Origin: an uncultured Armatimonadia bacterium | GTDB taxonomy: Bacteria > Armatimonadota > Zipacnadia > CAVVLO01 | DNA: 64,000 bases | Assembly (NCBI GenBank): GCA_963749155.1 | Contig: CAVVLO010000001.1 | Span: forward strand, 918,452 to 982,451 | Direction: 5' to 3' | In this document: one piece after another, positions 38,422 to 64,000 of the stretch | Layout: each line of letters starts with the position of its first letter | Numbering within the stretch: the first letter of the stretch is position 1 | Made by a program: the position numbers and the translations under genes | Notes under the pieces: generated by a model | What the model was told of the DNA's origin: nothing | The model's database searches: none | What the model saw: only the letters and a program-made list of their open reading frames with translations

Positions 38422-38524
38422 CGAAGGTAGTAACCTGTTGGTTTCCAGCACACACTTTGAATTACGTTGTAAAGACGCTGTTTGTAAAAGTAGGTGTTTC
38501 GTCCCAACCAAGGAGGAAGCCCCG

Positions 38525-39263
38525 ATGTCAGGCTCGAGACGCTGGGCAGCGTTTGCCCTGGTCACAGTGCTCCTTACGGTGGTCACGCTCCTCGTTCTGT
38601 GGTACCCGGTCCTCGCCGACGGGCTGAAGGACGCCCAGCAGGCCTCCTGCATCGCCAACCTCAAGAAGATCATCCTCGCAACCAGAATGTACTGCAGCGA
38701 CTGGGACGGCGCTTACCCCAACTCCGCCCTTACCGGCGCAAGCTACTCCGAGGCCTATGGCGGCGAGTTGCCGAAGAACATGCAGTTCGAGCGCCAGCGG
38801 AAGGGCTGGCCCGTGGCGCTGGCGCCTTACCTGGCCGACTCGCAGGTGCTGTGGTGTCCTGCTGACGGCGACCTCGCTGAGCACTGCCCCAGATGCCGAG
38901 GTGTCCTACTGGTTTCGCCACGCCCTGGACATCGGCCCTCTCTACCACTGGGGTCGGCCGCTCTCGGTGTCCGACATGGCCTTCGCCGATAGGCAGTTCC
39001 TCTTCTACGAGCATAGCGACTGGCACGGCGCGGGCGTTGGCCTTGGTACTGGCATCGCCGGTGCCGGCGGCCACGGGCCCGACCTCGACGGCATCACCTC
39101 GGTGACGATCAACTGCGCCTTCGCGGACGGCCACGCGGCCGCGCTCGAGCTTGGGCCCGGCCTCTCTTCCGCAGGCAAGACCATCGATGCCAACTGGTTC
39201 ACCTCGACCACTGACCCCTCCGACCCAACGGCCCTGTGGAACCCGAAGATCAGCCTCGACTAG
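38525..39263 (+). CDS. DUF1559 / H-X9-DG-type prepilin-like protein, copy 1 (frameshift near 38870)
   Basis: TM + AQQASCIANLKKIILATRMYCSDWD, LWCPAD, NCAFADGH. Confidence 0.8.
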
Positions 39264-41738: not shown

Positions 41739-44700
41739 ATGAGCAGGCTGGCGGGCAGCAGGTTAGGGCAGATAGCGAGCTATGTGGCGGCGTTCTGTTG
41801 CGCATGGCTGATCTGCCTGGGCGACTGGGCACAGTTGGCGGGAGCCCAGGCGGCCAGTCGGCCTGGCGCTGCCCCGGCGGTTGCCAGTATGCGCGTGCTC
41901 GCGCCCGGCGAGCTAACGAGCATCAGCGGGCAGACTACCAACTCGTGCTTGGTGCAGGGGGTGCCTGACCCCTGCGTCGTCGCGATGAGGAACGCGTCCG
42001 AAATTATGTCGGGCTCCTGCCGGCCTGGTGTTAGCTGCGATCGACTGGCCCGGGTGGTGTGTGCTGCCTCGCCGGGAGGCCAGGCCAGCGCCTCTCAGTT
42101 GGTTGGCAAGAGCAGCAACAGCCTGGGTCCGCACGTGGACCTGGAGCTGTATCACAGCAGCCGCAACATCGGCTCGACGGGCTTCTTCGGGCGGGTGTGG
42201 GCCTCGACCTGGGACCAGCACGTCTCGGAGGCGCCAGGCGGCAACGTGACGGTCTTCCGCAAGGACCACACGCTCGATGAGTTCACCAGGAACGTGGACG
42301 GCTCCTACACCGCCCCTCCCGGCGTGCACGATGTGCTGGTGAAGCACACCGCTACCGATGGCAGCTTCACGCTGACGCTGGTGGACGGCACCGAGCAGCA
42401 CTTCTACCCCCTTGGGGGCACAACCTCCGGTCGGCTGGACACCGTGACGGACCGCAACGGCAACACCGTGACCTGCGGCTACGAGGGCACCGGGAAGGTC
42501 ACGACAGTCACCGACGCGGCCGGGCGCATCACCACCTTCGCCTACGATGGCTCCGGGCGCGTCGAGAGCGCAACCAACCCGGCCCTGGAGATAACCACTT
42601 TCACTTACGATGCAAATAGCGACCTGCAGACGGTGACGTTGCCCACCGGGGCAATAACGACCTATACCTACGATGCCAACCACCGCATCAGCCAGCTCAC
42701 CGACCCCAACGGCCGAGTGACCACCTTCAGCTACGACGGGGATGGACGCACGACGGGGGTGACCGATCCCCTTGGCTACCGCAGCACCGTTACCTATAAC
42801 GGCATCTACTGCAGCTGGACGGATCCGCTCGGGCAGCTCACGACCTACACCTACGACGGGACGGACCAGTTCGCCAAGCTCATCGCCTCCGAGGACCCGA
42901 CTGGCCGGACCGTGAGCTACACCTACAACAGCGACCGGGCGCGGACGGAGGTCACCGACCCGCTGGGCAACATCACGACCTTCACCTACGACTCGGATGG
43001 CAATCGCACCAGCTCAACCAACCCGCTGGGCAAGACCACTTATTACACCTGGGACTCGGACCACCACCTCACCACCGTGACCGATCCGCTGGGCAACACC
43101 ACCACCTACACCTACGAGGGGAGCGGCAACCTGGAGACGGTCACCGATCCCCTCGCTAGCGAAACAGGCTTCACCTACACGGCCGAGGGGCTACCGGAGA
43201 CGGTTACCGACCCGCTGGCTGGCGTCACGACCTTCACCTATGACGCTGACGGGAACCTGGCGACGGTGAGGGACGCGCTCGGCAACCTCACCACTCATAC
43301 CTATGATGCGATTGGGAACAGGCTGACGACAACCGATGCCCTGAACCATACGACCACCTTCACCTACGATGCCATCGACAGGCTCATCCAGACGACCTTC
43401 CCCGATGGCAACAGCCGCACGGTCACTTACCAGGGGAGCCTTCAGATCCAAAGCACCGATGAAGAGGGCCGCATCACCACCAACACCTTCGACACGGGCG
43501 GCCGGCTGATCGGGGTAACGCTTGCGACCGGGGCGATGACGACTTACGTCTACGACGCCCTGAACCGGCTCGCTAGCGGTGACCGATGCCGAGGGCGTTG
43601 CGCCTGCGGCTGACTACAGCGTGGCCGGCGCCGGCACCAGCGCCTTCAACGGGGACTATTCCGAGGACGGCACTTACAACGGCAAGCCGGCCTACAAGCT
43701 GGACAACAGCCATTACCTCATCTGGCAGACCCGGGCGTTGCCGCCGGCCTCGGAGCGCTGGGAGCTGCAGACCCAGAAGGGCGGGGGCACCTGCTACTAT
43801 TATGGGACAGGCCCCGATCTTCCAGCCGGCGCCTGGACGGCCTCCAGCGGCACGCCGCCAGCGCCTACGGTGAGCGCGGCTCTACCCAACCCACACCACC
43901 ACCTACACCTACGATGCGGCCGGGCGCCAGCTGACGGCCACCGACCCCTGGGCAACACCACGACCAACTCCTACGATGACGCGGGCCGGCTGCTGACCCG
44001 GACCGACCCGCGGGGGAACCTGGTCACCTACAGCTACGATGATACGAGTCAGCTTACGGGGTGGACTACCCGACGGGCACCGACCTGGCTTTCACCTACG
44101 ATGATGCAGGGCGGCGAATCGACGTCCACGACGCCTCAGGCTACACGACCTATACTTACGATGCCCTCGGCCGGACGACCGTCGTCACCACGCCTGGGCC
44201 AGAGCGGGCCACCTATGCCTACGATACCCTCGGCAACCGCACCGAGTTCACTGACCAGGACGGGGGCCTCACCACTTACTCCTACGATGCCCTGGGGCGG
44301 CTCGAGGCGCTCACCAACCCCAGCAGCGAGGAGACGAGCTTCGAGTACGATGATATCGGCAACAGGACTCGCCTGACTCACGCTAGCGGCGCCTATACGA
44401 CCTACACCTACACCTCGCGCAACTGGCTGGAGGAGCTCTCGAACCGCAAGTCGGATGAGACGGTGCTCTCCAGCTTCGCCTATGACCACGACGACTGCGG
44501 CAACCGGACCGAGATGACCGAGGCCACGGGCGACGTCACCACCTATGCTTACGACTGCCCTCTACGAGCTGACCGGGCAGACCAAGCGCAACTCGGGGGA
44601 TGTAGTACAATATAGTTATAGCTACACTTATGACGACATCGGCAACAGGCTGACTCTTACCGACCAGGGGAGCGCGGTGACGACCTCCACTTACAACGCG

Positions 44701-45816: not shown

Positions 45817-46908
45817 TGGCCGTAGCAGTAGACGATGGTGGGTGGAGACGCTGCGGTGTGGCAAGCGTAGCTCGGACGCGACAGGTGGCCAACCGCAGTC
45901 GCGCTCACGGCCTGGCGTTCGCGCGTGTCCTCGGCTCGATGGCACGGCAGGAGCAGTCGTTCTACTGGAATCGCGGCCCTGGGCTTGGGGAACGCCGAAC
46001 GGGAGGGCTCTCGCTCTGCGTCTGGGCTTGCTCGCTGACGGCGGCCGTTCCGCTCTCGACGGGCGATCCCGGCTGAAGCCGCGGGTATTGTCTCGGACGC
46101 CTACTCGCCGGCGTTGCTCTGCTACGGTCGGTGCTGATGGCGCTGGGCCTGTCCGACGCATGGTACCAGGCGTGATGGCGCTCTTCCCGTTCCGACCGAC
46201 TGGAACGCCAGCGCCTGAACCTGTCTACGCTGGTGGCACGGCGGGTGCTAGTGGTTGCGGTTTTGCTCATCGCAGCATCGCCCGGCCGATCCGCTCGGTA
46301 CGGCTTGGACAGTGGCTTCGCGAGCAGCGCTGGTGACATGCGGCGTGTTTCTCATCCGTTTCTGGGTCTGGGGCGAACCGGAGTGACACTGCGTCACGCT
46401 ACACCGAGACCTACACCTACACCTCGCGCAACTGGCTGGAGGAGCTCTCGAACCGCAAGTCGGATGAGACGGTGCTCTCCAGCTTCGCCTACGACCACGA
46501 CGACTGCGGCAACCGGACTCAAATGACCGAGGCCACCGGCGACGTCACCACCTACGCCTACGATGCCCTCTACGAGCTGACCGGCCAGACGAAGCGCAAC
46601 TCGGGGGATGTAGTACAATACAGTTATAGCTACACTTACGATGACATCGGCAATCGGCTGACTCTTACCGACCAGGGGAGCGCGGTGACGACCTCCACTT
46701 ACAACGCCGGCGGGCAGTTGACCGGGACGGATGCCTCCGGGACGCTGACCACCTACACCTACGATGCCTCGGGCAATCTCCAGGCCGAGGTCACGAGCGC
46801 CGGGACGCGCTCCTACACCTGGGACTACGACGACCGGCTGACCGACATCGAGTACCCGGACTCTTCCGAGACCAACTACACCTACAACTCCGCCGGGCAG
46901 CGGCTGAC
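45079..46908 (+). repeat. Inverted repeat of 48627-50450 (core + tip B + immunity B + orphan RHS fragment)
   Basis: Manual alignment; indel-rich between about 45390 and 46320. Confidence 0.85.
45816..46386 (+). pseudogene. Indel-ridden copy of immunity gene B (decay or sequencing error)
   Basis: Aligns to the reverse complement of 49150-49728 with many indels. Confidence 0.65.
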
Positions 46909-47762
46909 GAGGGTGGAGGGCGGGACGACGACCAGGTTCGTCTACGATGGGGCGAAGGTCGTGCTGGAACGCGACGGCGACGACGAGACCGAGGTGCGCT
47001 ACACCCACGAGGGCGGCTCGCTCTACGACGACCTCCTGAGCCAGCGACGCGATGGGGCCAGCTACGACTACCTGCTCGATGGGCTGGCGAGCGTGAAGCA
47101 GGTGGTGGACAGCTCCCAGGACGTCGAGAACAGCTACAGCTACGAGGCCTTCGGGCAGCCGACGGTCGGCCAGAGCGACGTCGCCAACCCGTACCTCTAT
47201 CTTGGGGGGCAAGGGGCGCGCTGGGAAGGCACGCCGGGCTTGTACTTTGATGCAGGACAGATACTACGACCCCTCATTCAGCATTGACTTGGGTAGGTAC
47301 CGTCGGGCGTGGCTCCACTTCTGCGACCCGGTCCCGTGGCGGCCCTTGCAGTACCTCATCTGCATGCAGGAGGCACTTTCCGCTCGTGATCGTGCCAACA
47401 AGGCTCACGGCAGCAAGGAACACCGCGCCTGCTGGGCACTTAAGCCAATTAGGCAGGAGAGAGCAGCCTATGAGAATGCCTATCGCCATTGTCTTTGGAT
47501 GTGCGAACTGTCACGTGCCCAGGGCGAGTCCTGTGCATTGATGGCCGAGATGCTGCACGAGGGATCCAACTACGTCGAAGCTCTTCTCTTGTGCGGACTC
47601 AATATCTCTTGCTGGAAGAATTACGCGTATGACACACTGCACGATCTGCATAACAACCTCGTAGGGGTGGACTGCAGAAACCAGGGCGGCACTTGCTGGG
47701 ATTGCTGCAACACAGCTTATTATGAACAGAGACTTCTTCCCGACAAGCCCTTCTGGTCATAG
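46410..47762 (+). CDS. Orphan RHS core fragment + tip D1 (DUF6973-like; frameshift near 47248)
   Basis: RHS homology starts mid-gene; tip has NAYRHCLWMC...LHE...DTLHDLHNNLVG. Confidence 0.8.
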
Positions 47763-47851
47763 CCGGACAGGCCTGCCAGAACGTAGCCTGCGGTGAGATG
47801 TGTCACCTAGCGCATCGCCGGGCTGTAGCCTGTCTACAGGGGTGAACAGGC

Positions 47852-48328
47852 TTGAATAAACGGAAAACTATCGAGCTCGTAGTGAGCCTTGCAGTAGGGC
47901 TCACAGTTTCTCTGCTCATTGTACTGGCCATCGGACTTGTACTTGTCCACAATCTGCTTGATTTTGGCGGTCCACGTGGTCTGCCCTTCCTCATCGGACA
48001 CTGCCTTGCCTATAGCAATGCGCCCTTCAATGCGGAGACGTGGCGCGACCAACCTGAGCCGCAACGTAGGATCTACCCATCGCCTCGCTACAGCATGGCC
48101 AGATCCCTTGTCAAGGACCACTTGCGGCGTGACGTGACCATTGCTGATGTCAAGACGCTCTTGGGGCCCCCAGACAGCGTCCACAACAATGCTGGCATAC
48201 AACCAACGTTGGAATACTGCTTGGGTGTGCCATTTGGCGACATGCCCTACAGGGACATGTATATCTACCTCGTGTTTGATCCTACGGGGCGGTATATGGG
48301 GTACTCGATCTATTATGAGAGTAGCTAG
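47852..48328 (+). CDS. Putative immunity protein D1 (TM anchor + SmpA/BamE-like domain)
   Basis: Directly after tip D1; FNAETW, RYSMARSL, DVKTLLGPPD, LVFDPTGR. Confidence 0.7.
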   Translation: MNKRKTIELVVSLAVGLTVSLLIVLAIGLVLVHNLLDFGGPRGLPFLIGHCLAYSNAPFNAETWRDQPEPQRRIYPSPRYSMARSLVKDHLRRDVTIADVKTLLGPPDSVHNNAGIQPTLEYCLGVPFGDMPYRDMYIYLVFDPTGRYMGYSIYYESS

Positions 48329-48364
48329 AACGCGAGTTGATCGACGGGACAGACTTAGCTTTCT

Positions 48365-48497
48365 CTCTACGAGCTGACCGGGCAGACGAAGCGTAACTCG
48401 GGGGATGTAGTACAATACAGTTATAGCTACACTTACGATGACATCGGCAACAGGCTGACTCTTACCGACCAGGGGAGCGCGGTGACGACCTCCACTT
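48365..48497 (+). pseudogene. Short RHS repeat fragment
   Basis: LYELTGQTKRNSGDVVQYSYSY...SAVTTST, matching the RHS copies. Confidence 0.8.
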
Positions 48498-48630
48498 CCG
48501 CCTGGCGTAGCTTGTTGATGATCTGCTCTGGCGTGTGCTTCACGTTCCCCATTCCCATCGCCCCTTTTCTCGGTCCAAATCCATGCCAATTATGACATTA
48601 CACCTGGACTCGTTTTGGGGGGCAAGGTCA
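48490..48630 (-). mobile_element. Left-end remnant of an IS3-family (IS407-group-like) element
   Basis: Begins TGACCTTGCCCCCC; encodes MGNVKHTPEQIINKLRQAEVE, typical of an IS3 OrfA N-terminus; then truncated. Confidence 0.8.
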
Positions 48631-49125
48631 GCCGCTGCCCGGCGGAGTTGTAGGTGTAGTTGATCTCGGAGGAGTCCGGGTACTCGATGTCGGTCAGGCG
48701 GTCGTCGTAGTCCCAGGCGTAAGAGCGCGTGCCTGCGCTGGTGACCTCGGCCTGGAGATTGCCCGAGGCATCGTAGGTATAGGTGGTCAGCGTCCCGGAG
48801 GCGTCCGTCCCGGTCAGCTCTCCGCCGGCGTTGTAAGTGGAGGTCGTCACCGCGCTCCCCTGGTCGGTAAGAGTCAGCCGATTGCCGATATCATCGTAAG
48901 TGTAGCTATAACTATATTGTACTACATCCCCCGAGTTGCGCTTCGTCTGGCCGGTCAGCTCGTAGAGGGCATCGTAGGCGTAGGTGGTGACGTCGCCGGT
49001 GGCCTCGGTCATTTGAGTCCGGTTGCCGCAGTCGTCGTGGTCGTAGGCGAAGCTGGAGAGCACCGTCTCATCCGACTTGCGGTTCGAGAGCTCCTCCAGC
49101 CAGTTGCGCGAGGTGTAGGTGTAGG
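48627..49125 (-). pseudogene. Orphan RHS fragment truncated at the IS remnant
   Basis: YTYTSRNWLEELSNRK...SAGQRLT followed by IS sequence. Confidence 0.8.
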
Positions 49126-49149
49126 CTCTCGGTGTAGCGTGACGCAGTG

Positions 49150-49728
49150 TCACTCCGGTTCGCCCCAGACCCAGAAACGGATGAGAAACACGCCGCATGT
49201 CACCAGCGCTGCTCGCGAAGCCACTGTCCAAGCCAGTAGGGCGGGTAGAGTGTATAGGCCGGGCGATGCTGCGATGAGCAAAACCGCAAGCACTAGGACC
49301 CGCAGTGCCACCAGCGTAGACAGGTTCAGGTCGCTGGCGTTCCACCGGTTCCGGAACGGGAAGAGCGCCATCACGCCTGGTACCATGGTCGGACCAAGGC
49401 CCAGCGCCAACACACCGGCCAGTAGCAGAGCAGCGCCGAAGTAGGCGTCCGAGAAATACCCGCGGCTCCATCCGGGATCGCCCGTCGAGAGCGGAAGGGC
49501 CGCCGCCAGCAGAGCAAGCAAGACGCAGAGCGAGAGCCCTGCCTGGTTCGGCATTCCCCAAGCCCAGTGGCCGCGATTCCAGTAGAACGACTGCGGTCCT
49601 GCCGTGGCCATCGAGGCGAGCAGCGCGAACGAGGCCGTGAGCGCGACTGCGGTTGGCCACCTGTCACGCGCCCGAGCTACCTTGCCACACCGCAGGTTCC
49701 ACCCACCATCGTCTACTTCTGGGGCCAT
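49150..49728 (-). CDS. Putative immunity protein B (polytopic membrane protein)
   Basis: Start overlaps the tip-B stop (TGATG); multiple TM segments. Confidence 0.7.
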   Translation of the reverse strand: MAPEVDDGGWNLRCGKVARARDRWPTAVALTASFALLASMATAGPQSFYWNRGHWAWGMPNQAGLSLCVLLALLAAALPLSTGDPGWSRGYFSDAYFGAALLLAGVLALGLGPTMVPGVMALFPFRNRWNASDLNLSTLVALRVLVLAVLLIAASPGLYTLPALLAWTVASRAALVTCGVFLIRFWVWGEPE

Positions 49729-50459
49729 CAGTCCAGCCACTCCCTGCACTTGTCATCGCAGCCCGGGATGACAAAGACCGCTATCAGCAGCGTCACCGGG
49801 AGGCTCAGATGCCCGACGACCTCTGCCGCCGCGACGCAGCCAGCTCTCGGCAGTGCCCACGGCAGGAGCACCTGGAGGAGGTTGACGCTCCCGGAGAACC
49901 AGATGCTGGGGAGTTGGTCCACGACGTTCCACCAACACCCGAACGCGGAGTCACACGGGACGTAGGCGTAACCAGCAAACACGCATGAGAGCATACAGAT
50001 CGCATATGATCCGGCATGGCAGGTCCAGTCGCGGATCTCGGCCCAGTCGTGGGCAAACTGTGCGCGCCAGTATGCGCGATCCCATAGCCATGAGCCTGAT
50101 GCCCAGTAGAAGGGGTGACCGGCGGGGTACACGGGGCAGCCGTCAGCTCCAGCCACATCAGTCCTGCTCACCGGCCCATTTCCACAATACAGGTATCTGT
50201 GCAGGCTCATTGGGTCCTGGGGGGAGCCGCCGTAGGGGTCCTCCGAGAGGAAGCGGCCGACGCTCGGGCCGTAGTATCTGGCCTGCATAAAGTAGAGGCT
50301 CGGGGTGCTCTCCCACTGGACGCCGTACCCGCCAACGAACAGGTAGGGGTTCGCCACGTCGCTCTGGCCGACCGTTGCCTGACCGAAGGCCTCGTAGGAA
50401 TAGCTGTTCTCGACGGCCTGGGAGCTGTCTACCACCTGTTTCACGCTCGCTCTTCCCAT
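49728..50459 (-). CDS. Orphan RHS core + tip B (Cys/Trp-rich, hydrophobic)
   Basis: Core ...NGPVSRTDVAG followed by a ~135-aa unique tip. Confidence 0.85.
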   Translation of the reverse strand: MGRASVKQVVDSSQAVENSYSYEAFGQATVGQSDVANPYLFVGGYGVQWESTPSLYFMQARYYGPSVGRFLSEDPYGGSPQDPMSLHRYLYCGNGPVSRTDVAGADGCPVYPAGHPFYWASGSWLWDRAYWRAQFAHDWAEIRDWTCHAGSYAICMLSCVFAGYAYVPCDSAFGCWWNVVDQLPSIWFSGSVNLLQVLLPWALPRAGCVAAAEVVGHLSLPVTLLIAVFVIPGCDDKCREWLD

Positions 50460-50530
50460 CGCCCCTACCAGCAGTCCAGTTCCATGCCAACTACGAGATT
50501 ACACCTGGACTCGTTCTTGGGGCAAGGACA
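50451..50530 (-). mobile_element. Second, shorter IS3-family left-end remnant
   Basis: Imperfect direct repeat of 48552-48630 (TGTCCTTGCCCC...GAGTCCAGGTGTAAT...TTGGCATGGA...GGGGCGATGGGAA). Confidence 0.75.
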
Positions 50531-50540
50531 CCAGCCGCTG

Positions 50541-51416
50541 TTATGTAGGGCGAGTACAACGGGCCCTCTGCTCCCTGTCGGTGAGCCCGACCATCAGGAA
50601 CGCTGAAATCAGGGAGAGCGCTTGCGCCACGAGTAATACAGCGTCAGCGTCTCTCTGTATCAGCAGACCGTGTGGTATGACTATGAGAGCTGTGCCTGCT
50701 GCAATGCTCACAGAACACAGCAACCATACGCCCGGGGCATGGACAACAGAGTTCCAGTGCATTATGGCCAGACACAACACAATCACTGCTGCCGGCACAA
50801 CGAAGACCTGTATCCCGGGCCTCACCGGAAGCACATGGCGGATCCCCGGATCGGCCTCCGCCCATATGCCCAAGAACACGCCGCCCATAGCCAGTATGGC
50901 AGCCAACCAACCAAGTTCTTCGGCCTGCTGTCGGACGTTGCTGGACGGCAGTAACACGCCACATGCAATGGCCCATGCGCTGTAGAGTAGAGCAAGCCCG
51001 ACTCCCCAAAAGACAGGAACTCCCGCGCGGGACTCAAGGCATTCGAATACTGTGTTAAGGCCAGCCACCGACCAACCAACAACAGCAATCGACATCGCGC
51101 CCAGCAGTTGCATCAGGCTCAAGTCTGTGCTCGTGCAGCCCCCCGCACGTTGCTGCCTTATCGTCAAGCGATAAAGGGCCCCTGCAGCCAGAGCTGATAC
51201 AGGCAGTATTATGGCCCAGGCTGGAGCATCGGACTTCGCGAGCAACAGCGGCCAGCCGATTGCCAGGAGGCCGAACCAGCACATGCGCCCGATGTTACAC
51301 ATTCTGCCGGCTACACCTTCGTTCTTCCACCAGCAGTATGCGGCAGAGGCCAAGCCCAACCAACTGACAGCTAGAATGAATTCCAAGCGGTAAACTCCCA
51401 TGTGCTCCAACCCCAA
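50541..51416 (-). CDS. Putative immunity protein C (polytopic membrane protein)
   Basis: Directly after tip C; many hydrophobic segments. Confidence 0.7.
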   Translation of the reverse strand: MGLEHMGVYRLEFILAVSWLGLASAAYCWWKNEGVAGRMCNIGRMCWFGLLAIGWPLLLAKSDAPAWAIILPVSALAAGALYRLTIRQQRAGGCTSTDLSLMQLLGAMSIAVVGWSVAGLNTVFECLESRAGVPVFWGVGLALLYSAWAIACGVLLPSSNVRQQAEELGWLAAILAMGGVFLGIWAEADPGIRHVLPVRPGIQVFVVPAAVIVLCLAIMHWNSVVHAPGVWLLCSVSIAAGTALIVIPHGLLIQRDADAVLLVAQALSLISAFLMVGLTDREQRARCTRPT

Positions 51417-52459: not shown

Positions 52460-52942
52460 CTAGTCAATCGCAAAGCTGCTGTCGACATCCGCGCGGATCA
52501 TCCGCCCTCTTGAGTCGAAGTCAACGTAAAAGTCCCACATATCGCCATACTTGAAGGGATAGCCCAGCTTGTAGGTCCACGATTCCACGTTGGTCTGAGG
52601 GTTCTCACTCGTCCCCAGCTCCGGCTCGCCCAGCAGCTCCAGCACCTGGGCCTCGGACATCCCGGGGCGCAGGTAGCTGTCCAGCAGTGACCTGGCCATC
52701 TGGTACCTTAGCGATGGCGGATGTCCGCTGTCGTACCCGGTTGGAGAGTTGCCCTTCCAGACCTGACTGTCGAAGGGAGCCTTGCTGAGCGCCAGGTCGC
52801 CTCCGAGTATGCAGGGGATCCCGTACGGCGACAAGTAGAGGACGAGACTATCAGCAAGCAGCCCAAGGTACACGAACACGGCGCCAACCGTGATCGCTAG
52901 GGCCAAGATAACGCCGCGACGCCAGCGTCCCGCACGCAACAT
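52460..52942 (-). CDS. Putative immunity protein D2 (TM anchor + SmpA/BamE-like domain)
   Basis: AGGAGG RBS before ATG 52942; FDSQVW, RYQMARSL, GMSEAQVLELLGEPE, VDFDSRGR; paralogue of D1. Confidence 0.75.
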   Translation of the reverse strand: MLRAGRWRRGVILALAITVGAVFVYLGLLADSLVLYLSPYGIPCILGGDLALSKAPFDSQVWKGNSPTGYDSGHPPSLRYQMARSLLDSYLRPGMSEAQVLELLGEPELGTSENPQTNVESWTYKLGYPFKYGDMWDFYVDFDSRGRMIRADVDSSFAID

Positions 52943-53023
52943 AGCTCTCCTCCTAAGCACTGCAGCGGTCAGCACTCTCCGAGCGCCGCACGCACAGCCG
53001 GCGCTCGAGGGCATCCAGGGGAT

Positions 53024-56000
53024 TTATTGCGCCACCTTAGGATCTCTGACCAACCGACCAGACTTGGCGGCCGCAATGCAGCCATCCATGCACTGCCGAT
53101 CCCAGTTGCTGCCCAGCTCACGACCCAGGGATATCCCCACCAGGTTGTTGTCAAGATCGTGCAAGGTGTCGTCCCACCAACCCTCTACCCAAGGCCCAAC
53201 ATGTAGCTGCGGCCGGTCCTCTCCCTCTCTGTGCCTCCTATGGAGCCAGTCGTCGAGGTCGGTCCATACGGCCTGGGGCTCGTGCAGAGCGCCCACCCAG
53301 AGCGCACAGTCAGCGCTCACCAAACGAGTCAGCTTACACATCCAGAGGCAGTGAGTCACGGCGTTGCCGTAGCCCTCGGGCACACGACAGGGATCCTTTG
53401 CGTTTTCCTTGTTCATGGCCGTGATAGTGTAACGACTATTCTCACGCCCCATTAGTATGCAGCGCACCACATTATACGCCATCAGTAATGGTGGCGAAGC
53501 CGACATCCGCACATAGTAGTGAATGACATTCGCTGCCCTGCTCTGGCAGATCCCGCGCCCCAGGCTTGGGCTGAAGAACCCAGCCTCAGCGTAGTAAAGT
53601 CCTGCAGAACTCTCCCAGCGCGCCCCTTGCCCCCCAAGATAGAGGTACGGGTTGGCCACGTCGCTCTGGCCGACCGTCGCTTGCCCGAAGGCCTCGTAGC
53701 TGTAGCTGTTCTCGACGGCCTGGGAGCTGTCCACCACCTGCTTCACGCTCGCGAGCCCGTCGAGCAGGTAGTCGTAGCTGGCCCCATCGCGTCGCTGGCT
53801 CAGGAGGTCGCTGTAGAGCGAGCCCCCCTCGTGGGTGTAGCGCGCCTCGGTCTCGTCGTCGCCGTCGCGCTCCAGCACGACCTTCGCCCCATCGTAGACG
53901 AACTTGGTCGTTGCCCCGCCTTCCACCTTCGTCAGCCGCTGCCCGGCGGAGTTGTAGGTGTAGTTGGTCTCGGAAGAGTCTGGGTACTCGATGTCGGTCA
54001 GCCTGTCGTCGTAGTCCCAGGTGTAGGAGCGCGTCCCGGCGCTCGTGACCTCGGCGGCGAGATTGCCCGAGGCGTCGTAGGTGTAGGTCGTCAGCGTCCC
54101 GGAGGCGTCCGTCCCGGTCAACTGCCCGCCTGCGTTGTAAGTGGAGGTCGTCACCGCGCTCCCCTGGTCGGTAAGAGTCAGCCTGTTGCCGATGTCGTCA
54201 TAAGTGTAGCTATAACTATATTGTACTACATCCCCCGAGTTGCGCTTGGTCTGCCCGGTCAGCTCGTAGATCGAGTCGTAAGCATAGGTGGTGACGTCGC
54301 CGGTGGCCTCGGTCATTTGAGTCCGGTTGCCGCAGTCGTCGTGGTCATAGGCGAAGCTGGAGAGCACCGTCTCATCCGACTTGCGGTTCGAGAGCTCCTC
54401 CAGCCAGTTGCGCGAGGTGTAGGTGTAGGTCGTATAGGCGCCGCTAGCGTGAGTCAGGCGAGTCCTGTTGCCGATATCATCGTACTCGAAGCTCGTCTCC
54501 TCGCTGCTGGGGTTGGTGAGCGCCTCGAGCCGCCCCAGGGCATCGTAGGAGTAAGTGGTGAGGCCCCCGTCCTGGTCGGTGAACTCGGTGCGGTTGCCGA
54601 GGGCATCGTAGGCATAGGTGGCCCGCTCTGGCCCAGGCGTGGTGACGACGGTCGTCCGGCTGAGGGCATCGTAAGTGTAGGTCGTGTAGCCTGAGGCGTC
54701 GTGGAAGTCGATTCGCCGCCCTGCATCATCATAGGTGAAGGCCAGGTCGGTGCCCGTCGGGTAGTCCACCCCAATAAGCTGACTCGTGTCATCGTAGCTG
54801 TAGGTGACCAGGTTCCCCCGCGGGTCGGTCCGGGTCTGCAGCCGGCCCGCATCGTCGTAAGTGTTCGTCGTGGTGTTGCCGAGGGGATCAGTGGCCGTCA
54901 GCTGCCGCCCGGCCGCATCGTAGGTGTAGGTGGTGGTGTGGGTTGGGTAGAGGCGCGTCACCGTGGGGGCTGGCGGCGTGCCGCTGGAGGCCGTCCAGGC
55001 GCCGGCTGGAAGATCGGGGCCTGTCCCATAATAGTAGCAGGCGCCCCCGCCCTTCTGCGTCTGCAGCTCCCAGCGCTCAGAGGCCGGCGGGAGCAGCCGG
55101 GTCTGCCAGATGAGGTAATGGCTGTTGTCCAGCTTGTAGGCCGGCTTGCCGTTGTAAGTGCCGTCCTCGGAATAGTCCCCGTTGAAGGCGCTGGTGCCGG
55201 CGCCGGCCACGCTGTAGTCAGCCGCAGGCGCAACGCCCTCGGCATCGGTCACCGCTAGCAGCCGGTTCAGGGCGTCGTAGACGTAAGTCGTCATCGCCCC
55301 GGTCGCAAGCGTTACCCCGATCAGCCGGCCGCCCGTGTCGAAGGTGTTGGTGGTGATGCGGCCCTCTTCATCGGTGCTTTGGATCTGAAGGCTCCCCTGG
55401 TAAGTGACCGTGCGGCTGTTGCCATCGGGGAAGGTCGTCTGGATGAGCCTGTCGATGGCATCGTAGGTGAAGGTGGTCGTATGGTTCAGGGCATCGGTTG
55501 TCGTCAGCCTGTTCCCAATCGCATCATAGGTATGAGTGGTGAGGTTGCCGAGCGCGTCCCTCACCGTCGCCAGGTTCCCGTCAGCGTCATAGGTGAAGGT
55601 CGTGACGCCAGCCAGCGGGTCGGTAACCGTCTCCGGTAGCCCCTCGGCCGTGTAGGTGAAGCCTGTTTCGCTAGCGAGGGGATCGGTGACCGTCTCCAGG
55701 TTGCCGCTCCCCTCGTAGGTGTAGGTGGTGGTGTTGCCCAGCGGATCGGTCACGGTGGTGAGGTGGTGGTCCGAGTCCCAGGTGTAATAAGTGGTCTTGC
55801 CCAGCGGGTTGGTTGAGCTGGTGCGGTTCCCATCCGAGTCGTAGGTGAAGGTGGTGATGTTGCCCAGCGGGTCGGTGACCTCCGTCCGCGCCCGGTCGCT
55901 GTTGTAGGTGTAGCTCACGGTCCGGCCAGTCGGGTCCTCGGAGGCGATGAGCTTGGCGAACTGGTCCGTCCCGTCGTAGGTGTAGGTCGTGAGCTGCCCG

Positions 56001-57091
56001 AGCGGATCCGTCCAGCTGCAGTAGATGCCGTTATAGGTAACGGTGCTGCGGTAGCCAAGGGGATCGGTGACCCCCCTCGTGCGTCCATCCCCGTCGTAGC
56101 TGAAGGTGGTCACTCGGCCGTTGGGGTCGGTGAGCTGGCTGATGCGGTGGTTGGCATCGTAGGTATAGGTCGTTATTGCCCCGGTGGGCAACGTCACCGT
56201 CTGCAGGTCGCTATTTGCATCGTAAGTGAAAGTGGTTATCTCCAGGGCCGGGTTGGTTGCGCTCTCGACGCGCCCGGAGCCATCGTAGGCGAAGGTGGTG
56301 ATGCGCCCGGCCGCGTCGGTGACTGTCGTGACCTTCCCGGTGCCCTCGTAGCCGCAGGTCACGGTGTTGCCGTTGCGGTCCGTCACGGTGTCCAGCCGAC
56401 CGGAGGTTGTGCCCCCAAGGGGGTAGAAGTGCTGCTCGGTGCCGTCCACCAGCGTCAGCGTGAAGCTGCCATCGGTAGCGGTGTGCTTCACCAGCACATC
56501 GTGCACGCCGGGAGGGGCGGTGTAGGAGCCGTCCACGTTCCTGGTGAACTCATCGAGCGTGTGGTCCTTGCGGAAGACCGTCACGTTGCCGCCTGGCGCC
56601 TCCGAGACGTGCTGGTCCCAGGTCGAGGCCCACACCCGCCCGAAGAAGCCCGTCGAGCCGATGTTGCGGCTGCTGTGATACAGCTCCAGGTCCACGTGCG
56701 GACCCAGGCTGTTGCTGCTCTTGCCAACCAACTGAGAGGCGCTGGCCTGGCCTCCCGGCGAGGCAGCACACACCACCCGGGCCAGTCGATCGCAGCTAAC
56801 ACCAGGCCGGCAGGAGCCCGACATAATTTCGGACGCGTTCCTCATCGCGACGACGCAGGGGTCAGGCACCCCCTGCACCAAGCACGAGTTGGTAGTCTGC
56901 CCGCTGATGCTCGTTAGCTCGCCAGGCGCGAGCACGCGCATACTGGCAACCGCCGGGGCAGCGCCAGGCCGACTGGCCGCCTGGGCTCCCGCCAACTGTG
57001 CCCAGTCGCCCAGGCAGATCAGCCATGCGCAACAGAAAGCCGCCACATAGCTCGCTACCTGCCCTAACCTGCTGCCCGCCAGCCTGCTCAT
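53024..57091 (-). CDS. RHS/YD-repeat polymorphic toxin, copy 2 (intact), tip D2 (DUF6973-like)
   Basis: Uninterrupted ORF; GGGAGG RBS before ATG 57091; tip NAVTHCLWMC...LHE...DTLHDLDNNLVG. Confidence 0.92.
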   Translation of the reverse strand: MSRLAGSRLGQVASYVAAFCCAWLICLGDWAQLAGAQAASRPGAAPAVASMRVLAPGELTSISGQTTNSCLVQGVPDPCVVAMRNASEIMSGSCRPGVSCDRLARVVCAASPGGQASASQLVGKSSNSLGPHVDLELYHSSRNIGSTGFFGRVWASTWDQHVSEAPGGNVTVFRKDHTLDEFTRNVDGSYTAPPGVHDVLVKHTATDGSFTLTLVDGTEQHFYPLGGTTSGRLDTVTDRNGNTVTCGYEGTGKVTTVTDAAGRITTFAYDGSGRVESATNPALEITTFTYDANSDLQTVTLPTGAITTYTYDANHRISQLTDPNGRVTTFSYDGDGRTRGVTDPLGYRSTVTYNGIYCSWTDPLGQLTTYTYDGTDQFAKLIASEDPTGRTVSYTYNSDRARTEVTDPLGNITTFTYDSDGNRTSSTNPLGKTTYYTWDSDHHLTTVTDPLGNTTTYTYEGSGNLETVTDPLASETGFTYTAEGLPETVTDPLAGVTTFTYDADGNLATVRDALGNLTTHTYDAIGNRLTTTDALNHTTTFTYDAIDRLIQTTFPDGNSRTVTYQGSLQIQSTDEEGRITTNTFDTGGRLIGVTLATGAMTTYVYDALNRLLAVTDAEGVAPAADYSVAGAGTSAFNGDYSEDGTYNGKPAYKLDNSHYLIWQTRLLPPASERWELQTQKGGGACYYYGTGPDLPAGAWTASSGTPPAPTVTRLYPTHTTTYTYDAAGRQLTATDPLGNTTTNTYDDAGRLQTRTDPRGNLVTYSYDDTSQLIGVDYPTGTDLAFTYDDAGRRIDFHDASGYTTYTYDALSRTTVVTTPGPERATYAYDALGNRTEFTDQDGGLTTYSYDALGRLEALTNPSSEETSFEYDDIGNRTRLTHASGAYTTYTYTSRNWLEELSNRKSDETVLSSFAYDHDDCGNRTQMTEATGDVTTYAYDSIYELTGQTKRNSGDVVQYSYSYTYDDIGNRLTLTDQGSAVTTSTYNAGGQLTGTDASGTLTTYTYDASGNLAAEVTSAGTRSYTWDYDDRLTDIEYPDSSETNYTYNSAGQRLTKVEGGATTKFVYDGAKVVLERDGDDETEARYTHEGGSLYSDLLSQRRDGASYDYLLDGLASVKQVVDSSQAVENSYSYEAFGQATVGQSDVANPYLYLGGQGARWESSAGLYYAEAGFFSPSLGRGICQSRAANVIHYYVRMSASPPLLMAYNVVRCILMGRENSRYTITAMNKENAKDPCRVPEGYGNAVTHCLWMCKLTRLVSADCALWVGALHEPQAVWTDLDDWLHRRHREGEDRPQLHVGPWVEGWWDDTLHDLDNNLVGISLGRELGSNWDRQCMDGCIAAAKSGRLVRDPKVAQ

Positions 57092-57114
57092 CTGCTGCCT
57101 CCCTGCGTCCTGCG

Positions 57115-58047
57115 CTACTGTTCTCTGAGGCTGACGGCCAGCACGTAGCCGTCCCATATCCGCTCAAACGGGCCAACTGCAAGTGCGTAGCGTCCCTTTG
57201 CGGGATCGTTCAACTCAACCGCATCCCTGCTCGCCGCCGTCACCACTACGTAGTGATTGCCGCCCACCCAGGCAAGCACGGGCTTTGGCATCTTGCGCAG
57301 GTACTCGTAGTTCACCTGGAGCCCCTCGGCCGCCAGTCCCTTGGCCTTGGCCGCTTTCGCAAGACCCGCCAGCGAGGTGCCTGTGCGGTCGGTGCTGGCG
57401 AGGCGGGCTAGTTCTTCGGGCGTAGTTGCCTCTCCAAGTTGTTTGCAGATGATCGCCAGTGCGTCCGGCCCACACATCCCCACCCGCGGCGCCGGTCGAG
57501 TCTCCTCGTAGATGAGCGGCTCCAGCTTGCGCTCGCCTGCCCCCGTGACGTCGCTGATGGCCTCTTCGACAGGCCTCGTAGCGGAACCCGGAGCGTCTGT
57601 TACCTTCGCGGTCCCGCCGCCCTGCTTGACCCGGGCCTTGGCGATCCAGTCCTCAGCCTTCTCGCTGAGGTAGCTGTCGGGGAAGCGCTGCTGCAGCTCC
57701 CGGAACTCGCGCTCGGCGCCGGCATAGTCGCCCTGGGCGAAGAAGCAGATGCCACGCTGGTACTGCGCATCGTCGGCCAGGGGGTCGTTGGGGTACTTGG
57801 CGCAGCAGGCGCGCGAAGTTATCCGCGTCCTTGCCGTAATCCCCCTCCCCGCAGCCGCGTAGGCGTCGCAGTAAAGGCCCTGGGCCAGGAGAGAGGGGGC
57901 GGACTCGGTGGAATCAGAGAGCGATGCAGCGGAATGGCTCCCGCCCGCACTCGGACCTGCGAGCAGATGCCAGAGCGCCGCCGCGCCGACCAGCACGCCG
58001 ACCACAACTGCTGCAACCATCCAGACTGGAGGAGTAGACCGCTCCAT
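57115..58047 (-). CDS. Membrane-anchored TPR + C39 cysteine peptidase, copy 2 (single ORF)
   Basis: 310 aa; C/H/D triad motifs CGPDAL, NHYVVV, NDP; no ABC transporter domain. Confidence 0.9.
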   Translation of the reverse strand: MERSTPPVWMVAAVVVGVLVGAAALWHLLAGPSAGGSHSAASLSDSTESAPSLLAQGLYCDAYAAAGRGITARTRITSRACCAKYPNDPLADDAQYQRGICFFAQGDYAGAEREFRELQQRFPDSYLSEKAEDWIAKARVKQGGGTAKVTDAPGSATRPVEEAISDVTGAGERKLEPLIYEETRPAPRVGMCGPDALAIICKQLGEATTPEELARLASTDRTGTSLAGLAKAAKAKGLAAEGLQVNYEYLRKMPKPVLAWVGGNHYVVVTAASRDAVELNDPAKGRYALAVGPFERIWDGYVLAVSLREQ

Positions 58048-59565: not shown

Positions 59566-60303
59566 CTAGTCGAGGCTGATCTTCGGGTTCCACAGGGCCG
59601 TTGGGTCGGAGGGGTCAGTGGTCGAGGTGAACCAGTTGGCATCGATGGTCTTGCCTGCGGAAGAGAGGCCGGGCCCAAGCTCGAGCGCGGCCGCGTGGCC
59701 ATCGGCGAAGGCGCAGTTGATTGTCACCGAGGTGATGCCGTCCTCATCTGGACCGTGGCCGCCGGCGCCGGCGATGCCAGTACCAAGGCCAACGCCCGCG
59801 CCGTGCCAGTCGCTATGCTCGTAGAAGAGGAATTGCTTGTCGGCAAAGACCATGTCGGAGACTGAGAGCGGCCGACCCCAGTGGTAGAGAGGGCCGATGT
59901 CCAGGGCATGTCTGAACCAGTAAGAGACTTCAGCGTCCGGTGACGGGCTTATCGAGTTCCCATCAGCTGGACACCACAGCACCTGCGAGTCGGCCAGGTA
60001 AGGCGCCAGCGCCACGGGCCAGCCCTTCCGCTGGCGCTCGAACTGCATGTTCTTCGGCAACTCGCCGCCATAGGCCTCGGAGTAGCTTGCGCCGGTAAGG
60101 GCGGAGTTGGGGTAAGCGCCGTCCCAGTCGCTGCAGTACATTCTGGTTGCGAGGATGATCTTCTTGAGGTTGGCGATGCAGGAGGCCTGCTGGGCGTCCT
60201 TCAGCCCGTCGGCGAGGACCGGGTACCACAGAACGAGGAGCGTGACCACCGTAAGGAGCACTGTGACCAGGGCAAACGCTGCCCAGCGTCTCGAGCCTGA
60301 CAT
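59566..60303 (-). CDS. DUF1559 / H-X9-DG-type prepilin-like protein, copy 2 (intact)
   Basis: AAGGAGG RBS before ATG 60303; SCIANLKKI...MY.SDWD; NCAFADGH. Confidence 0.85.
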   Translation of the reverse strand: MSGSRRWAAFALVTVLLTVVTLLVLWYPVLADGLKDAQQASCIANLKKIILATRMYCSDWDGAYPNSALTGASYSEAYGGELPKNMQFERQRKGWPVALAPYLADSQVLWCPADGNSISPSPDAEVSYWFRHALDIGPLYHWGRPLSVSDMVFADKQFLFYEHSDWHGAGVGLGTGIAGAGGHGPDEDGITSVTINCAFADGHAAALELGPGLSSAGKTIDANWFTSTTDPSDPTALWNPKISLD

Positions 60304-60407
60304 CGGGGCTTCCTCCTTGGTTGGGACGAAACACCTACTTTTACAAACAGCGTCTTTACAACGTAATTCAAAGCGCGTGCTGGAAACCAACACGGTTACT
60401 ATCTTCG

Positions 60408-60768: not shown

Positions 60769-60796
60769 TTGACGCCCTGCACTACAGTGGTATAGT
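60769..60796 (+). promoter_or_regulatory. Putative promoter of RHS copy 3
   Basis: TTGACG-16bp-TATAGT with extended -10 TG. Confidence 0.55.
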
Positions 60797-60920: not shown

Positions 60921-63900
60921 ATGAGCAGGCTGGCGGGCAGCAGGCTAGGGCGGATGGCGAGCTATGTGGCGGCTTTCTGTTGCGCATGGCTGATTTGCCT
61001 GGGCGACTGGGCACAGTTGGCGGGAGCCCAGGCGGCCAGGCGCACCGGGCCAACGGCGGTTGCCAGTATGCGCGTGCTCGCGCCCGGTGAGCTAACGAGC
61101 ATCAGCGGGCAGACTACCAACTCGTGCTTGGTGCAGGGGGTGCCTGACCCCTGCGTCGTCGCGATGAGGAACGCGTCCGAAATTATGTCGGGCTCCTGCC
61201 GGCCTGGGGTTAGCTGCGATCGACTGGCCCGGGTGGTGTGTGCTGCCTCGCCGGCAGGTCAGACCAGCACCTCTCAGTTGGTTGGCAAGAGCAGCAACAG
61301 CCTGGGTCCGCACGTGGACCTGGAGCTGTATCACAGCAGCCGCAACATCGGCTCGACGGGCTTCTTCGGGCGGGTGTGGGCCTCGACCTGGGATCAGCAC
61401 GTCTCGGAGGCGCCAGGCGGCAACGTGACGGTCTTCCGCAAGGACCACACGCTCGATGAGTTCACCAGGAACGTGGACGGCTCCTACACCGCCCCTCCCG
61501 GCGTGCACGATGTGCTGGTGAAGCACACCGCGCTACCGATGGCAGCTTCACGCTGACGCTGGTGGACGGCACCGAGCAGCACTTCTACCCCCTTGGAGGC
61601 ACAACCTCCGGTCGGCTGGACACCGTGACGGACCGCAACGGCAACACCGTGACCTGCGGCTACGAGGGCACCGGGAAGGTCACGACAGTCACCGACGCGG
61701 CCGGGCGCATCACCACCTTCGCCTACGATGGCTCCGGGCGCGTCGAGAGCGCAACCAACCCGGCCCTGGAGATAACCACTTTCACTTACGATGCAAATAG
61801 CGACCTGCAGACGGTGACGTTGCCCACCGGGGCAATAACGACCTATACCTACGATGCCAACCACCGCATCAGCCAGCTCACCGACCCCAACGGCCGAGTG
61901 ACCACCTTCAGCTACGACGGGGATGGACGCACGAGGGGGGTCACCGATCCCCTTGGCTACCGCAGCACCGTTACCTATAACGGCATCTACTGCAGCTGGA
62001 CGGATCCGCTCGGGCAGCTCACGACCTACACCTACGACGGGACGGACCAGTTCGCCAAGCTCATCGCCTCCGAGGACCCGACTGGCCGGACCGTGAGCTA
62101 CACCTACAACAGCGACCGGGCGCGGACGGAGGTCACCGACCCGCTGGGCAACATCACCACCTTCACCTACGACTCGGATGGGAACCGCACCAGCTCAACC
62201 AACCCGCTGGGCAAGACCACTTATTACACCTGGGACTCGGACCACCACCTCACCACCGTGACCGATCCGCTGGGCACCACCACCACCTACACCTACGAGG
62301 GGAGCGGCAACCTGGAGACGGTCACCGATCCCCTCGCTAGCGAAACAGGCTTCACCTACACGGCCGAGGGGCTACCGGAGACGGTTACCGACCCGCTGGC
62401 TGGCGTCACGACCTTCACGTACGATGCTGACGGGAACCTGGCCACGGTAAGGGACGCGCTCGGCAACCTCACCACTCATACCTATGATGCGATTGGGAAC
62501 AGGCTGACGACAACCGATGCCCTGAACCATACGACCACCTTCACCTACGATGCCATCGACAGGCTCATCCAGACGACCTTCCCCGATGGCAACAGCCGCA
62601 CGGTCACTTACCAGGGGAGCCTTCAGATCCAAAGCACCGATGAAGAGGGCCGCATCACCACCAACACCTTCGACACGGGCGGCCGGCTGATCGGGGTAAC
62701 GCTTGCGACCGGGGCGATGACGACTTACGTCTACGACGCCCTGAACCGGCTGCTAGCGGTGACCGATGCCGAGGGCGTTGCACCTGCGGCCGACTACAGC
62801 GTGGCCGGCGCCGGCACCAGCGCCTTCAACGGGGACTATTCCGAGGACGGCACTTACAACGGCAAGCCGGCCTACAAGCTGGACAACAGCCATTACCTCA
62901 TCTGGCAGACCCGGGCGCTGCCGCCGGCCTCTGAGCGCTGGGAGCTGCAGACCCAGAAGGGCGGGGGCGCCTGCTACTATTATGGGACAGGCCCCGATCT
63001 TCCAGCCGGCGCCTGGACGGCCTCCAGCGGCACGCCGCCAGCCCCCACGGTGACGCGCCTCTACCCAACCCACACCACCACCTACACCTACGATGCGGCC
63101 GGGCGGCAGCTAACGGCCACTGATCCCCTCGGCAACACCACGACGAACACTTACGACGACGCGGGCCGGCTGCACACCCGGACCGACCCGCGGGGGAACC
63201 TGGTCACCTACAGCTACGATGACACGAGTCAGCTTATCGGGGTGGACTACCCGACGGGCACCGACCTGGCTTTCACCTACGATGATGCAGGGCGGCGAAT
63301 CGACGTCCACGACGCCTCAGGCTACACGACCTATACTTACGATGCCCTCGGCCGGACGACCGTCGTCACCACGCCTGGGCCAGAGCGGGCCACCTATGCC
63401 TACGATGCCCTCGGCAACCGCACCGAGTTCACCGACCAGGACGGGGGCCTCACCACTTACTCCTACGATGCCCTGGGGCGGCTCGAGGCGCTCACCAACC
63501 CCAGCAGCGAGGAGACGAGCTTCGAGTACGATGATATCGGCAACAGGACTCGCCTGACTCACGCTAGCGGCGCCTATACGACCTACACCTACACCTCGCG
63601 CAACTGGCTGGAGGAGCTCTCGAACCGCAAGTCGGATGAGACGGTGCTCTCCAGCTTCGCCTATGACCACGACGACTGCGGCAACCGGACCGAGTTGACC
63701 GAGGCCACGGGCGATGTCACCACCTACACCTACGATGCCCTCTACGAGCTGACCGGGCAGACCAAGCGCAACTCGGGCGATGTAGTACAATATAGTTATA
63801 GCTACACGTATGACGACATCGGCAACAGGCTGACTCTTACCGACCAAGGGAGCGCGGTGACGACTTACACCTACAACGCGGGCGGAGAGTTGATCGGCAC

Positions 63901-64000
63901 GGACGCCTCTGGCACGCTGACCACCTTCACCTACGATGCCTCGGGCAACCTCTCGACTGAGGTCATCGGCGCCGGGACGCGCTCCTACACCTGGGACTAC
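60921..64000 (+). CDS. RHS/YD-repeat protein, copy 3 (partial, runs off window; frameshift near 61530)
   Basis: Near-identical to copies 1 and 2 from CAGGGAGGCAGCAGATG onward. Confidence 0.9.

Follow-up and report, generated by a model that had tools for sequence, protein, structure and literature searches.

An exported C39 peptidase gene paired with an RHS toxin gene bearing a double-glycine-type tag in an uncultured bacterium of the Armatimonadota

Here we report an operon from an uncultured bacterium of the Armatimonadota in which the gene of a stand-alone C39 peptidase directly precedes that of an RHS toxin, whose precursor carries, behind a signal peptide for the general secretory (Sec) pathway, a tag of the double-glycine type. 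The operon lies in a stretch of 64,000 nucleotides (nt), hereafter the window (contig CAVVLO010000001.1, positions 918,452 to 982,451), which forms the end of contig C1. The genome has 4.17 Mb in seven contigs and an estimated completeness of 100%. With a probability of about 0.72, the operon represents, in split form, a widespread module consisting of an exported C39 peptidase, a post-signal tag and an RHS toxin, and the pairing points to a putative route of toxin maturation that is so far undescribed. RHS toxins are usually treated as cargo of Tc-like machines or of type VI (T6SS) or type VII (T7SS) secretion systems. Double-glycine leaders have the consensus LSxxELxxIxGG, with a hydrophobic spacing of -12, -7 and -4; classical ones have Gly, Ala or Ser at -1 and are cleaved after it.

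Results

The minus strand of the window encodes four tightly packed genes: a secreted TPR protein of 487 amino acids (aa) (P0003; 58063..59526), a transmembrane (TM)-TPR-C39 peptidase of 310 aa (P0002; 57115..58047), the RHS protein of copy 2 (P0001) and a small membrane protein of 184 aa (52460..53014), with intergenic gaps of 15, 23 and 9 nt. In P0002, a hydrophobic helix (approximately 57958-58026) is followed by a TPR (Pfam TPR_6, residues 93-125; 57673-57771) and a Peptidase_C39 domain (Pfam PF03412, residues 192-306; 57130-57474) with an E value of 2.9e-26 and 92.3 bits against a cut-off of 22; no ABC domain was matched by Pfam in the protein. Cys192 (codon 57472-57474), His265 (57253-57255) and Asp281 (57205-57207), which we take from family knowledge to be the catalytic residues, are invariant among five P0002 orthologues in a large protein collection (89% and 41-47% identity). 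An alignment of 33 related RHS-linked C39s has invariant Cys192 and His265 and at least 90% conservation of Asp281.

As read from sequence, the C39 domain lies outside the cytoplasm in all forms seen, because it comes with a TM anchor in the window, with lipoprotein signals in relatives of about 250 aa and with signal peptides in fused proteins. The N-terminal helix of the window type has basic residues on its N-side in the orthologues; lipoprotein-type signal peptides were found in five of the six RHS-linked C39s of about 250 aa inspected in other genomes (the start of the sixth is unclear), and the fused C39-RHS proteins described below start with ordinary signal peptides.

RHS copy 2 most likely starts at ATG 57091 (MSRLAG...) and not at the first ATG of its open reading frame (ORF) at 57157, because a Shine-Dalgarno site, AGGGAGG (57098..57104, minus strand), lies 6 nt upstream of the start codon 57089-57091 and the similarity to copy 3 begins exactly there. 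Counted from this codon (Met23 of the ORF), the protein has 1355 aa (57091-53024). The precursor runs from a basic n-region through a hydrophobic core, AQA, a linker, the tag, a Cys-rich stretch and a DUF6531-like region to the RHS repeats. The 38-residue n-h-c region, read from the sequence as a Sec-type signal peptide (MSRLAGSRLGQ..., hydrophobic core, ...AGAQA; 56978..57091), is followed by a variable linker of 12 residues, ASRPGAAPAVAS (56942..56977), and by the tag MRVLAPGELTSISGQ (56897..56941), all on the minus strand. The tag has R-14, L-12, E-8, L-7, I-4, G-2 and Q-1. The earlier note on this DNA had placed the motif at 56897-56941 (-), 41889-41933 (+) and 61068-61112 (+), which is exact for all three RHS copies in the window; the genome total is four, the fourth copy having the same N-terminus and lying at the end of contig C4 without a C39 gene. 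Its comparison with LSxxELxxIxGG also stands, since the spacing -12/-8/-7/-4/-2 recurs in LAPGELTSISGQ in the window and in LSTAELKGIKGG at the orthologous locus L067. Unlike classical leaders, which occupy the extreme N-terminus of a cytoplasmic precursor, the tag sits behind a signal peptide and a linker.

If translation began instead at Met73, MRVLAPGELTSISGQ would be a classical cytoplasmic leader, to be exported by an ABC transporter and cut by a cytoplasmic C39. The motif does open with Met and is as long as a short classical leader, but Met23 has a strong Shine-Dalgarno site ahead of it while Met73 has none, the indels upstream of Met73 are in frame, a signal peptide with an AxA-type site precedes the tag in every relative, and related C39s have lipoprotein or Sec signals. 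The whole genome has two PF03412 domains, both in the window directly upstream of tag-bearing RHS genes and neither fused to an ABC domain, so it lacks a peptidase-containing ABC exporter. A start at Met73 is accordingly very improbable.

The association of peptidase and tag was followed in both directions. Of 401 genomes from the phylum, 117 had C39 matches to P0002. Around the best of these matches, the leader pattern occurred only in N-termini after a hydrophobic segment, except for one sigma-factor helix, and all six tag-bearing neighbours scanned were RHS proteins. Because the N-terminal 143 residues of the window RHS have no detectable homologue, the wider survey from the RHS side was made with a profile of eight tag-bearing RHS N-termini, which matched in 129 of the 401 genomes. 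The first 80 matches outside this genome, in listing order, were taken with 8 kb on either side and scored with a C39 profile built from orthologues, the RHS N-terminus profile and two tag patterns; a C39 was counted if it lay on the same strand no more than 1.5 kb upstream. The strict pattern missed Q at -8 and R, T and K at -1; a relaxed one, with R-14 as its anchor, was brought in once the sequences had been inspected.

Both C39 and tag were present at 24 of the 80 loci and neither at 52; one locus (L265) had a C39 only and three had a tag only, two of which (L215, L268) are cut by contig ends while the third (L223) has 8 kb free of C39. None of the 52 RHS N-termini without a C39 neighbour matched the strict or the relaxed pattern. 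These counts include curation of L167, where one TAG splits the ORF with the tag from the RHS body, and of L221, where two fragments were counted once; the raw table before curation, of 83 ORFs including two extra loci, read 23 / 4 / 4 / 52. The split loci are spread over six coded families, and in one genome (G306) two RHS genes come with both C39 and tag while two others have neither. Nine further matches, a biased addition because they were picked for alignment of the leader part of the profile, included six loci with a TM-TPR-C39 gene followed by a tag-bearing RHS gene and one C39-RHS fusion (L292, by NCBIfam). The 1.5-kb contig L287 has a C39 match upstream of an RHS N-terminus match, and L286 has a tag with no C39 in the 8 kb upstream and a C39-like match about 12 kb away on the contig.

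Among 34 aligned tags, R-14, L-12, E-8 and G-2 are conserved to at least 90%, with M or L predominating at -7 and I, M, L or W at -4. The residue at -1 in the 34 distinct tags of other genomes is A (13), R (8), S (5), G (4), T (2) or K (1), and is ambiguous in L293. The earlier note had proposed a survey of homologues for co-occurrence or fusion of leader and C39, and a link between the two is borne out by the survey and by the fused forms. Of the findings that it named as refuting, neither a lack of the motif in C39-linked RHS relatives nor an equal frequency of it in RHS without C39 was seen. Its view of Gly-Gln as a non-canonical exception fails: only Gly-2 is fixed and -1 is variable across the family, so the Gly-Gln of the window fits. 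The variable -1 residue suggests a specificity wider than the GG/GA rule. Covariation of the -1 class with columns of the C39 alignment gave no clean column; the R/K class comprised just five cases, of which several are closely related.

Peptidase and tag also occur in one chain. When 1.84 billion cluster representatives were searched with a 326-residue segment that covers C39, the junction and DUF6531, 2455 matched at E values up to 0.001 and 72 at up to 1e-10. Among the best 150 representatives, 27 had at least 800 aa, of which 25 had Pfam C39 and RHS_repeat matches, one had C39 and DUF6531, and one was a peptidase-containing ABC transporter (PCAT). Fusions of the order signal-TPR-C39-tag-RHS amount to at least nine genomic proteins and 25 protein clusters; all eight long C39-bearing ORFs scanned have TPR, Peptidase_C39 and RHS repeats in one protein (Pfam). 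The fusions have L[ST]xxE[LM]xxIxGG directly after the C39 domain (for example LSQQELASAWGG, LSKAEMDSIRGG and LTKKEMEDIKGG), then CC, HHLHG or VCFCC; the tag pattern matches 16 of 26 fused cluster proteins, and more tags are visible by eye. By their sequences, the fusions are strong grounds for a joint action of the peptidase and the RHS protein with the tag, in cis within a fused chain and in trans in the window. Two other long C39-bearing frames were rejected as cNMP-binding PCAT exporters and not RHS fusions. Proteins of about 1030-1050 aa with cyclic-nucleotide-binding, C39 and ABC exporter parts were seen in L305, L306 and P0140 (Pfam for P0140, by eye for L305 and L306).

The tag could in principle be a chance resemblance and the C39 gene an unrelated neighbour. 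A degenerate pattern of 12 residues can arise randomly, and the strict leader pattern, run over this genome's ORFs of 150 aa or more (2.32 million residues), gave 28 matches, of which four are the RHS copies and 24 lie elsewhere. This background is about one match per 83,000 residues, however, and apart from the RHS copies no ORF in this set joins a signal-like N-terminus with the tag. Against chance stand also the two-way association across 80 loci and the fusions that hold tag and peptidase in one chain. The comparison of sequences already contradicts such a coincidence, which appears barely credible.

Close orthologues of the window operon are few. A locus search with the C39 alignment returned 34 metagenome and 64 genome loci, most of which matched the TPR part only; the orthologous loci were L067, L068 and L069 only, all on contigs of 1.8-2.5 kb. 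L067 keeps the gene order TPR, C39, next gene, with a C39 orthologue of 45-48% identity and a next ORF that overlaps the C39 stop. This ORF reads MSKLW...LAFCFLWTTCAGDLAQAAA...PRVLSTAELKGIKGG (start MSKLWRSKSARALSLFLAFCFLWTTCAGDLAQAAA) and has a similar signal peptide followed by the canonical LSxxELxxIxGG of LSTAELKGIKGG. In L068 a TPR gene precedes the C39 gene, and the next gene begins 11 nt past the C39 stop with a basic n-region before the contig ends.

The upstream TPR gene is thus kept in the closest orthologous loci, which would suit a C39 acting on another substrate, such as the TPR protein or the small membrane protein, with the RHS tag serving some other purpose; FapD, the best-known periplasmic C39, has a target that a passage of PMC5557850 still gives as unclear. 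Elsewhere, however, the conserved unit is only the C39 and the tag-bearing RHS, with differing other neighbours, the fusions carry the tag directly after the C39 domain, and this genome has no other ORF with signal peptide and tag. Another substrate is therefore improbable. Neither a conserved outer-membrane channel nor a conserved ABC partner was found at the seven loci inspected, where neighbours differ. At one of these seven, in genome G306 (L170:13743-15692, plus strand), an ABC exporter without C39 is divergent from the RHS-linked C39 lipoprotein gene.

Structure prediction was applied to P0002 residues 165-310 (33-row alignment) together with RHS residues 60-110 (34-row alignment). The complex had an ipSAE of 0.67 (runs 0.62, 0.67 and 0.71), whereas the highest score among three controls was 0.00. 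Partner pLDDT was no lower than 51, and the runs had 60% or more of their contacts in common. In calibration, 116 of 157 solved complexes attained the ipSAE mark, as did 2 of 215 mismatched pairs. On the RHS side the modelled interface consists of fragment residues 11 and 13-29, that is, V-18 to T+1, and on the C39 side of residues 189-193, 222-230, 241-249, 260-266, 283 and 301, which include Cys192 and His265. A prediction of this kind had been proposed in the earlier note; the one made here places the end of the tag at the two presumed catalytic residues. The model supports the same binding mode as in known C39 peptidases, not binding by this particular pair.

The copies within the genome are less informative. 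Over 5277 nt, copies 1 and 2 share 98.2% identity, with 11 gap openings, and downstream of the linker copy 3 is nearly 100% identical to them over about 200 aligned nt. Constancy of the motif within the genome is uninformative because the RHS copies are nearly identical; of the earlier argument from an invariant motif behind a variable linker, the difference in the linker stands and the argument itself is weak. The linker differs by in-frame indels of 3 nt in copy 3 and in one metagenome contig, and these in-frame differences are the only useful signal within the genome. Four metagenome runs have the tag with only a synonymous change and a linker that varies in frame. In RNA runs, by contrast, the share of the sampled sequence words that was present did not exceed 0.09.

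Single-base indels in all three genes, TPR, C39 and RHS, break the operon of copy 1 in this assembly. The earlier description of both upstream genes as TM-TPR-C39 proteins with an intact triad and no ABC domain therefore holds for copy 2, whereas the copy-1 C39 gene (40784..41712, plus strand) is divided between two frames (residues 1-86 and 80-310); the C39 domain itself is intact in both operon copies. In the C39 gene of copy 2, 17 codons of the first TPR helix (57796..57846, minus strand) are out of register with the 89% identical P0008. A contig from a public sediment metagenome restores the register by losing 1 nt at 57803 and gaining 1 nt after 57846, and the stretch is probably an assembly error or a strain variant. 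In two public metagenome runs (X4, X6), short contigs connect 57204 straight to 58061, which removes the C39 gene from the ribosome-binding site to the Asp281 codon, with no repeat visible at the ends of the junction.

RHS copy 3 has no C39 gene upstream. Copies 3 and 4 have in common a promoter-like TTGACG-N16-TATAGT about 125 nt before the start codon (60769-60796 for copy 3; about 155040 on contig C4 for copy 4), which suggests that they are transcribed independently of the C39 operon. The genome encodes BamA and LpxC, and no T6SS sheath protein of the VipB/TssC family was found in it; the organism thus has two membranes and no evident T6SS. Pfam matched no PAAR domain in the RHS protein, in keeping with the earlier description of an RHS toxin without T6SS or PAAR.

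The body of RHS copy 2 (53024..56896, minus strand) has a Cys-rich stretch, a DUF6531-like region and 17 stretches matching RHS_repeat (E value 7e-107; YD_repeat_2x 4e-83). P0001 gave no match to the RHS-associated core TIGR03696 at E values up to 0.01, whereas two relatives, L166 and L292, did; on visual inspection, the region is a divergent form of this core. At 53027-53700, copy 2 has FFSPSLGRGICQSRA where relatives have a core end of the type YYDP..GRF..DP, so C-terminal self-cleavage may differ or be lost. The C-terminal variable region (approximately 53027-53557, minus strand) has a weak DUF6973 match, and its 177 aa are unique to copy 2 except for one weak match. The membrane-anchored 184-aa protein encoded downstream (minus strand), with a weak BamE-like domain, is a candidate immunity protein.

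RHS copy 1 (41739..43613, plus strand) has a frameshift near 43579 and continues in another frame; copy 3 (60921..64000, plus strand) has a frameshift near 61556 and reaches the contig end. Between copies 1 and 2 (43579-51416), RHS C-terminal fragments and small unknown ORFs lie on both strands in an array that looks like displaced toxin and immunity cassettes; similar arrays of RHS fragments are present on contigs C3, C4, C5 and C6. The duplicated segment reaches past the TPR gene, because DUF1559-type genes flank both operon copies (59566-60393, minus strand; 38438-38992, plus strand).

Loci L172-L178 (genomes G171, G246, G298, G085, G124 and G258) encode Cys-rich proteins of 130-200 aa in which a signal peptide is followed by L[ST]xx[ED]MxxIxGG. 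They adjoin exported C39s of 245 and 411-630 aa (stop-to-stop frames; the short one is in L177) and look like a second cargo class of exported C39 peptidases.

Discussion

The split module could work as follows. The unfolded RHS precursor would be exported by Sec and cut by signal peptidase I after AQA; an AxA-type site ends the hydrophobic core in every precursor, and the tag is probably left on a short N-terminal propeptide. This propeptide of about 27 residues (linker and R-x-L-x-x-x-E-L-x-x-I-x-G-x) would dock helically on the membrane-anchored C39, which faces the periplasm, and a cut after G-2/X-1, here Gly-Gln, would release the mature RHS protein. The single intact C39 gene could also serve copy 3 and the copy on contig C4. 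The cleavage, its exact scissile bond and its purpose, whether release, timing or hand-over to an outer-membrane route, are what we infer. The proposal of the earlier note that a Sec-exported RHS protein is matured by C39 outside the cytoplasm finds support in the comparative evidence from both directions, with proteolysis itself as the inferred step.

Several points weigh against this reading. Q at -1 occurs in none of the 34 relatives, and Gln is not among the residues at C39 sites that are stated in a passage of PMC5557850 (GG, sometimes GA). The locus has indels, with a broken copy-1 operon and 17 codons of the intact C39 gene out of register, and the X4 and X6 metagenome runs, on short contigs, have the form that lacks most of the C39 gene. 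The N-terminus of the window RHS (residues 23-165) had no convincing homologue in any of 400 other genomes of the phylum, where scattered matches had E values of 3.5e-6 and weaker and several contained stops; in a collection of 5.8 billion proteins (757-2410 aa), none of 994 candidates gave a scored match. Direct support from orthologues is thus one short contig, L067. Related genomes are, moreover, non-independent samples. The complex score may reflect likeness to known structures, because PCAT1 is the closest solved relative of P0002 and substrate complexes of PCAT1 and related C39s have been solved (7t54-7t57). No evident route across the outer membrane was seen, despite BamA and LpxC in the organism.

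Some of these points would favour a C39 that binds the tag without cutting it, owing to Gln at -1 or to decay of the locus, so that the TPR-C39 protein would act as a chaperone or tether, in the manner of the inactive C39-like domains in RTX exporters. Q at -1 is unique among 36 tags, the indels and the C39-less metagenome form fit such decay, and HlyB-type C39-like domains are among the sequence relatives of P0002. However, Cys192, His265 and Asp281 are retained, the relatives with an intact triad already have R, K, T and S at -1, and the frame-restoring variant exists on a metagenome contig. Binding alone is thus unlikely, though the least so of the alternatives that would do without processing of the RHS protein by C39.

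More tentatively, the tag and the exported TPR-C39 might define a separate class of RHS trafficking and maturation in organisms with two membranes and no T6SS, in which periplasmic loss of the propeptide would license passage of the RHS cocoon to an outer-membrane exit, in parallel to FapD in Fap secretion. We regard this extension as possible but doubtful. If true, it would provide the first large natural substrate set for exported C39s, with relaxed specificity at -1.

The split module bears on the maturation and exit of Sec-dependent RHS proteins in diderms without T6SS, including the RHS protein of about 145 kDa described here. It is common in the phylum and beyond, and offers natural controls in its split and fused forms and in tag-less RHS paralogues within one genome. 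It also provides dozens of candidate substrates for exported C39 peptidases, whose recognition sequence is called uncharacterised in a passage of the FapD paper (PMC5557850).

Comparison with known systems

The C39 exporters of the PCAT/AMS type (PCAT1, 4ry2; LahT150, 6mpz; ComA, 3k8u) belong to the same peptidase family (profile E values 2e-25 to 5e-18), and their leaders have the same spacing as the RHS tag (L-12, E-8, L/M-7, I-4, G-2); the predicted docking likewise puts the end of the tag at the catalytic Cys and His. Unlike these exporters, the C39 of the window has no ABC transporter and is exported, with a membrane or lipid anchor in its family. The RHS tag differs from their leaders in following a Sec signal peptide, in its variable -1 residue (A, R, S, G, T, K, Q) and in a conserved Arg at -14, and a folded toxin of 1000-1400 aa takes the place of a peptide as cargo.

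Peptidases of the FapD/FilB type are likewise stand-alone periplasmic C39s that are exported by Sec and act on Sec-exported partners. According to passages of PMC5557850, FapD of the Fap system is a Sec-exported C39 whose active-site Cys is required for Fap secretion, and its target and recognition sequence are unclear. P0002 differs in having an RHS toxin as cargo and in scoring far below both NCBIfam cut-offs (FapD, NF058616, 27.5 against 330; FilB, NF050078, 19.2 against 475). No gene for a FapF-like barrel adjoins the seven loci inspected.

A literature search, with supplements outside its scope, found no link between C39 processing and RHS proteins; full-text searches for Rhs/YD repeat and C39 gave only PMC3482391. 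In the relevant passages of that paper (Zhang et al. 2012), ZU5 and PrsW are N-terminal processing peptidases of RHS toxins, and C39 figures there only as a C-terminal toxin domain, Tox-PL-C39. As in the ZU5 and PrsW toxins, a peptidase is located at or linked to the N-terminus of a Sec-dependent RHS protein, and trafficking would be coupled to proteolysis. In contrast to them, the C39 described here would be a processing enzyme that acts via a leader-type tag, either fused or encoded by a separate gene, and the module thereby ties RHS toxins to the leader-peptidase logic of bacteriocins, with a precise predicted cut site.

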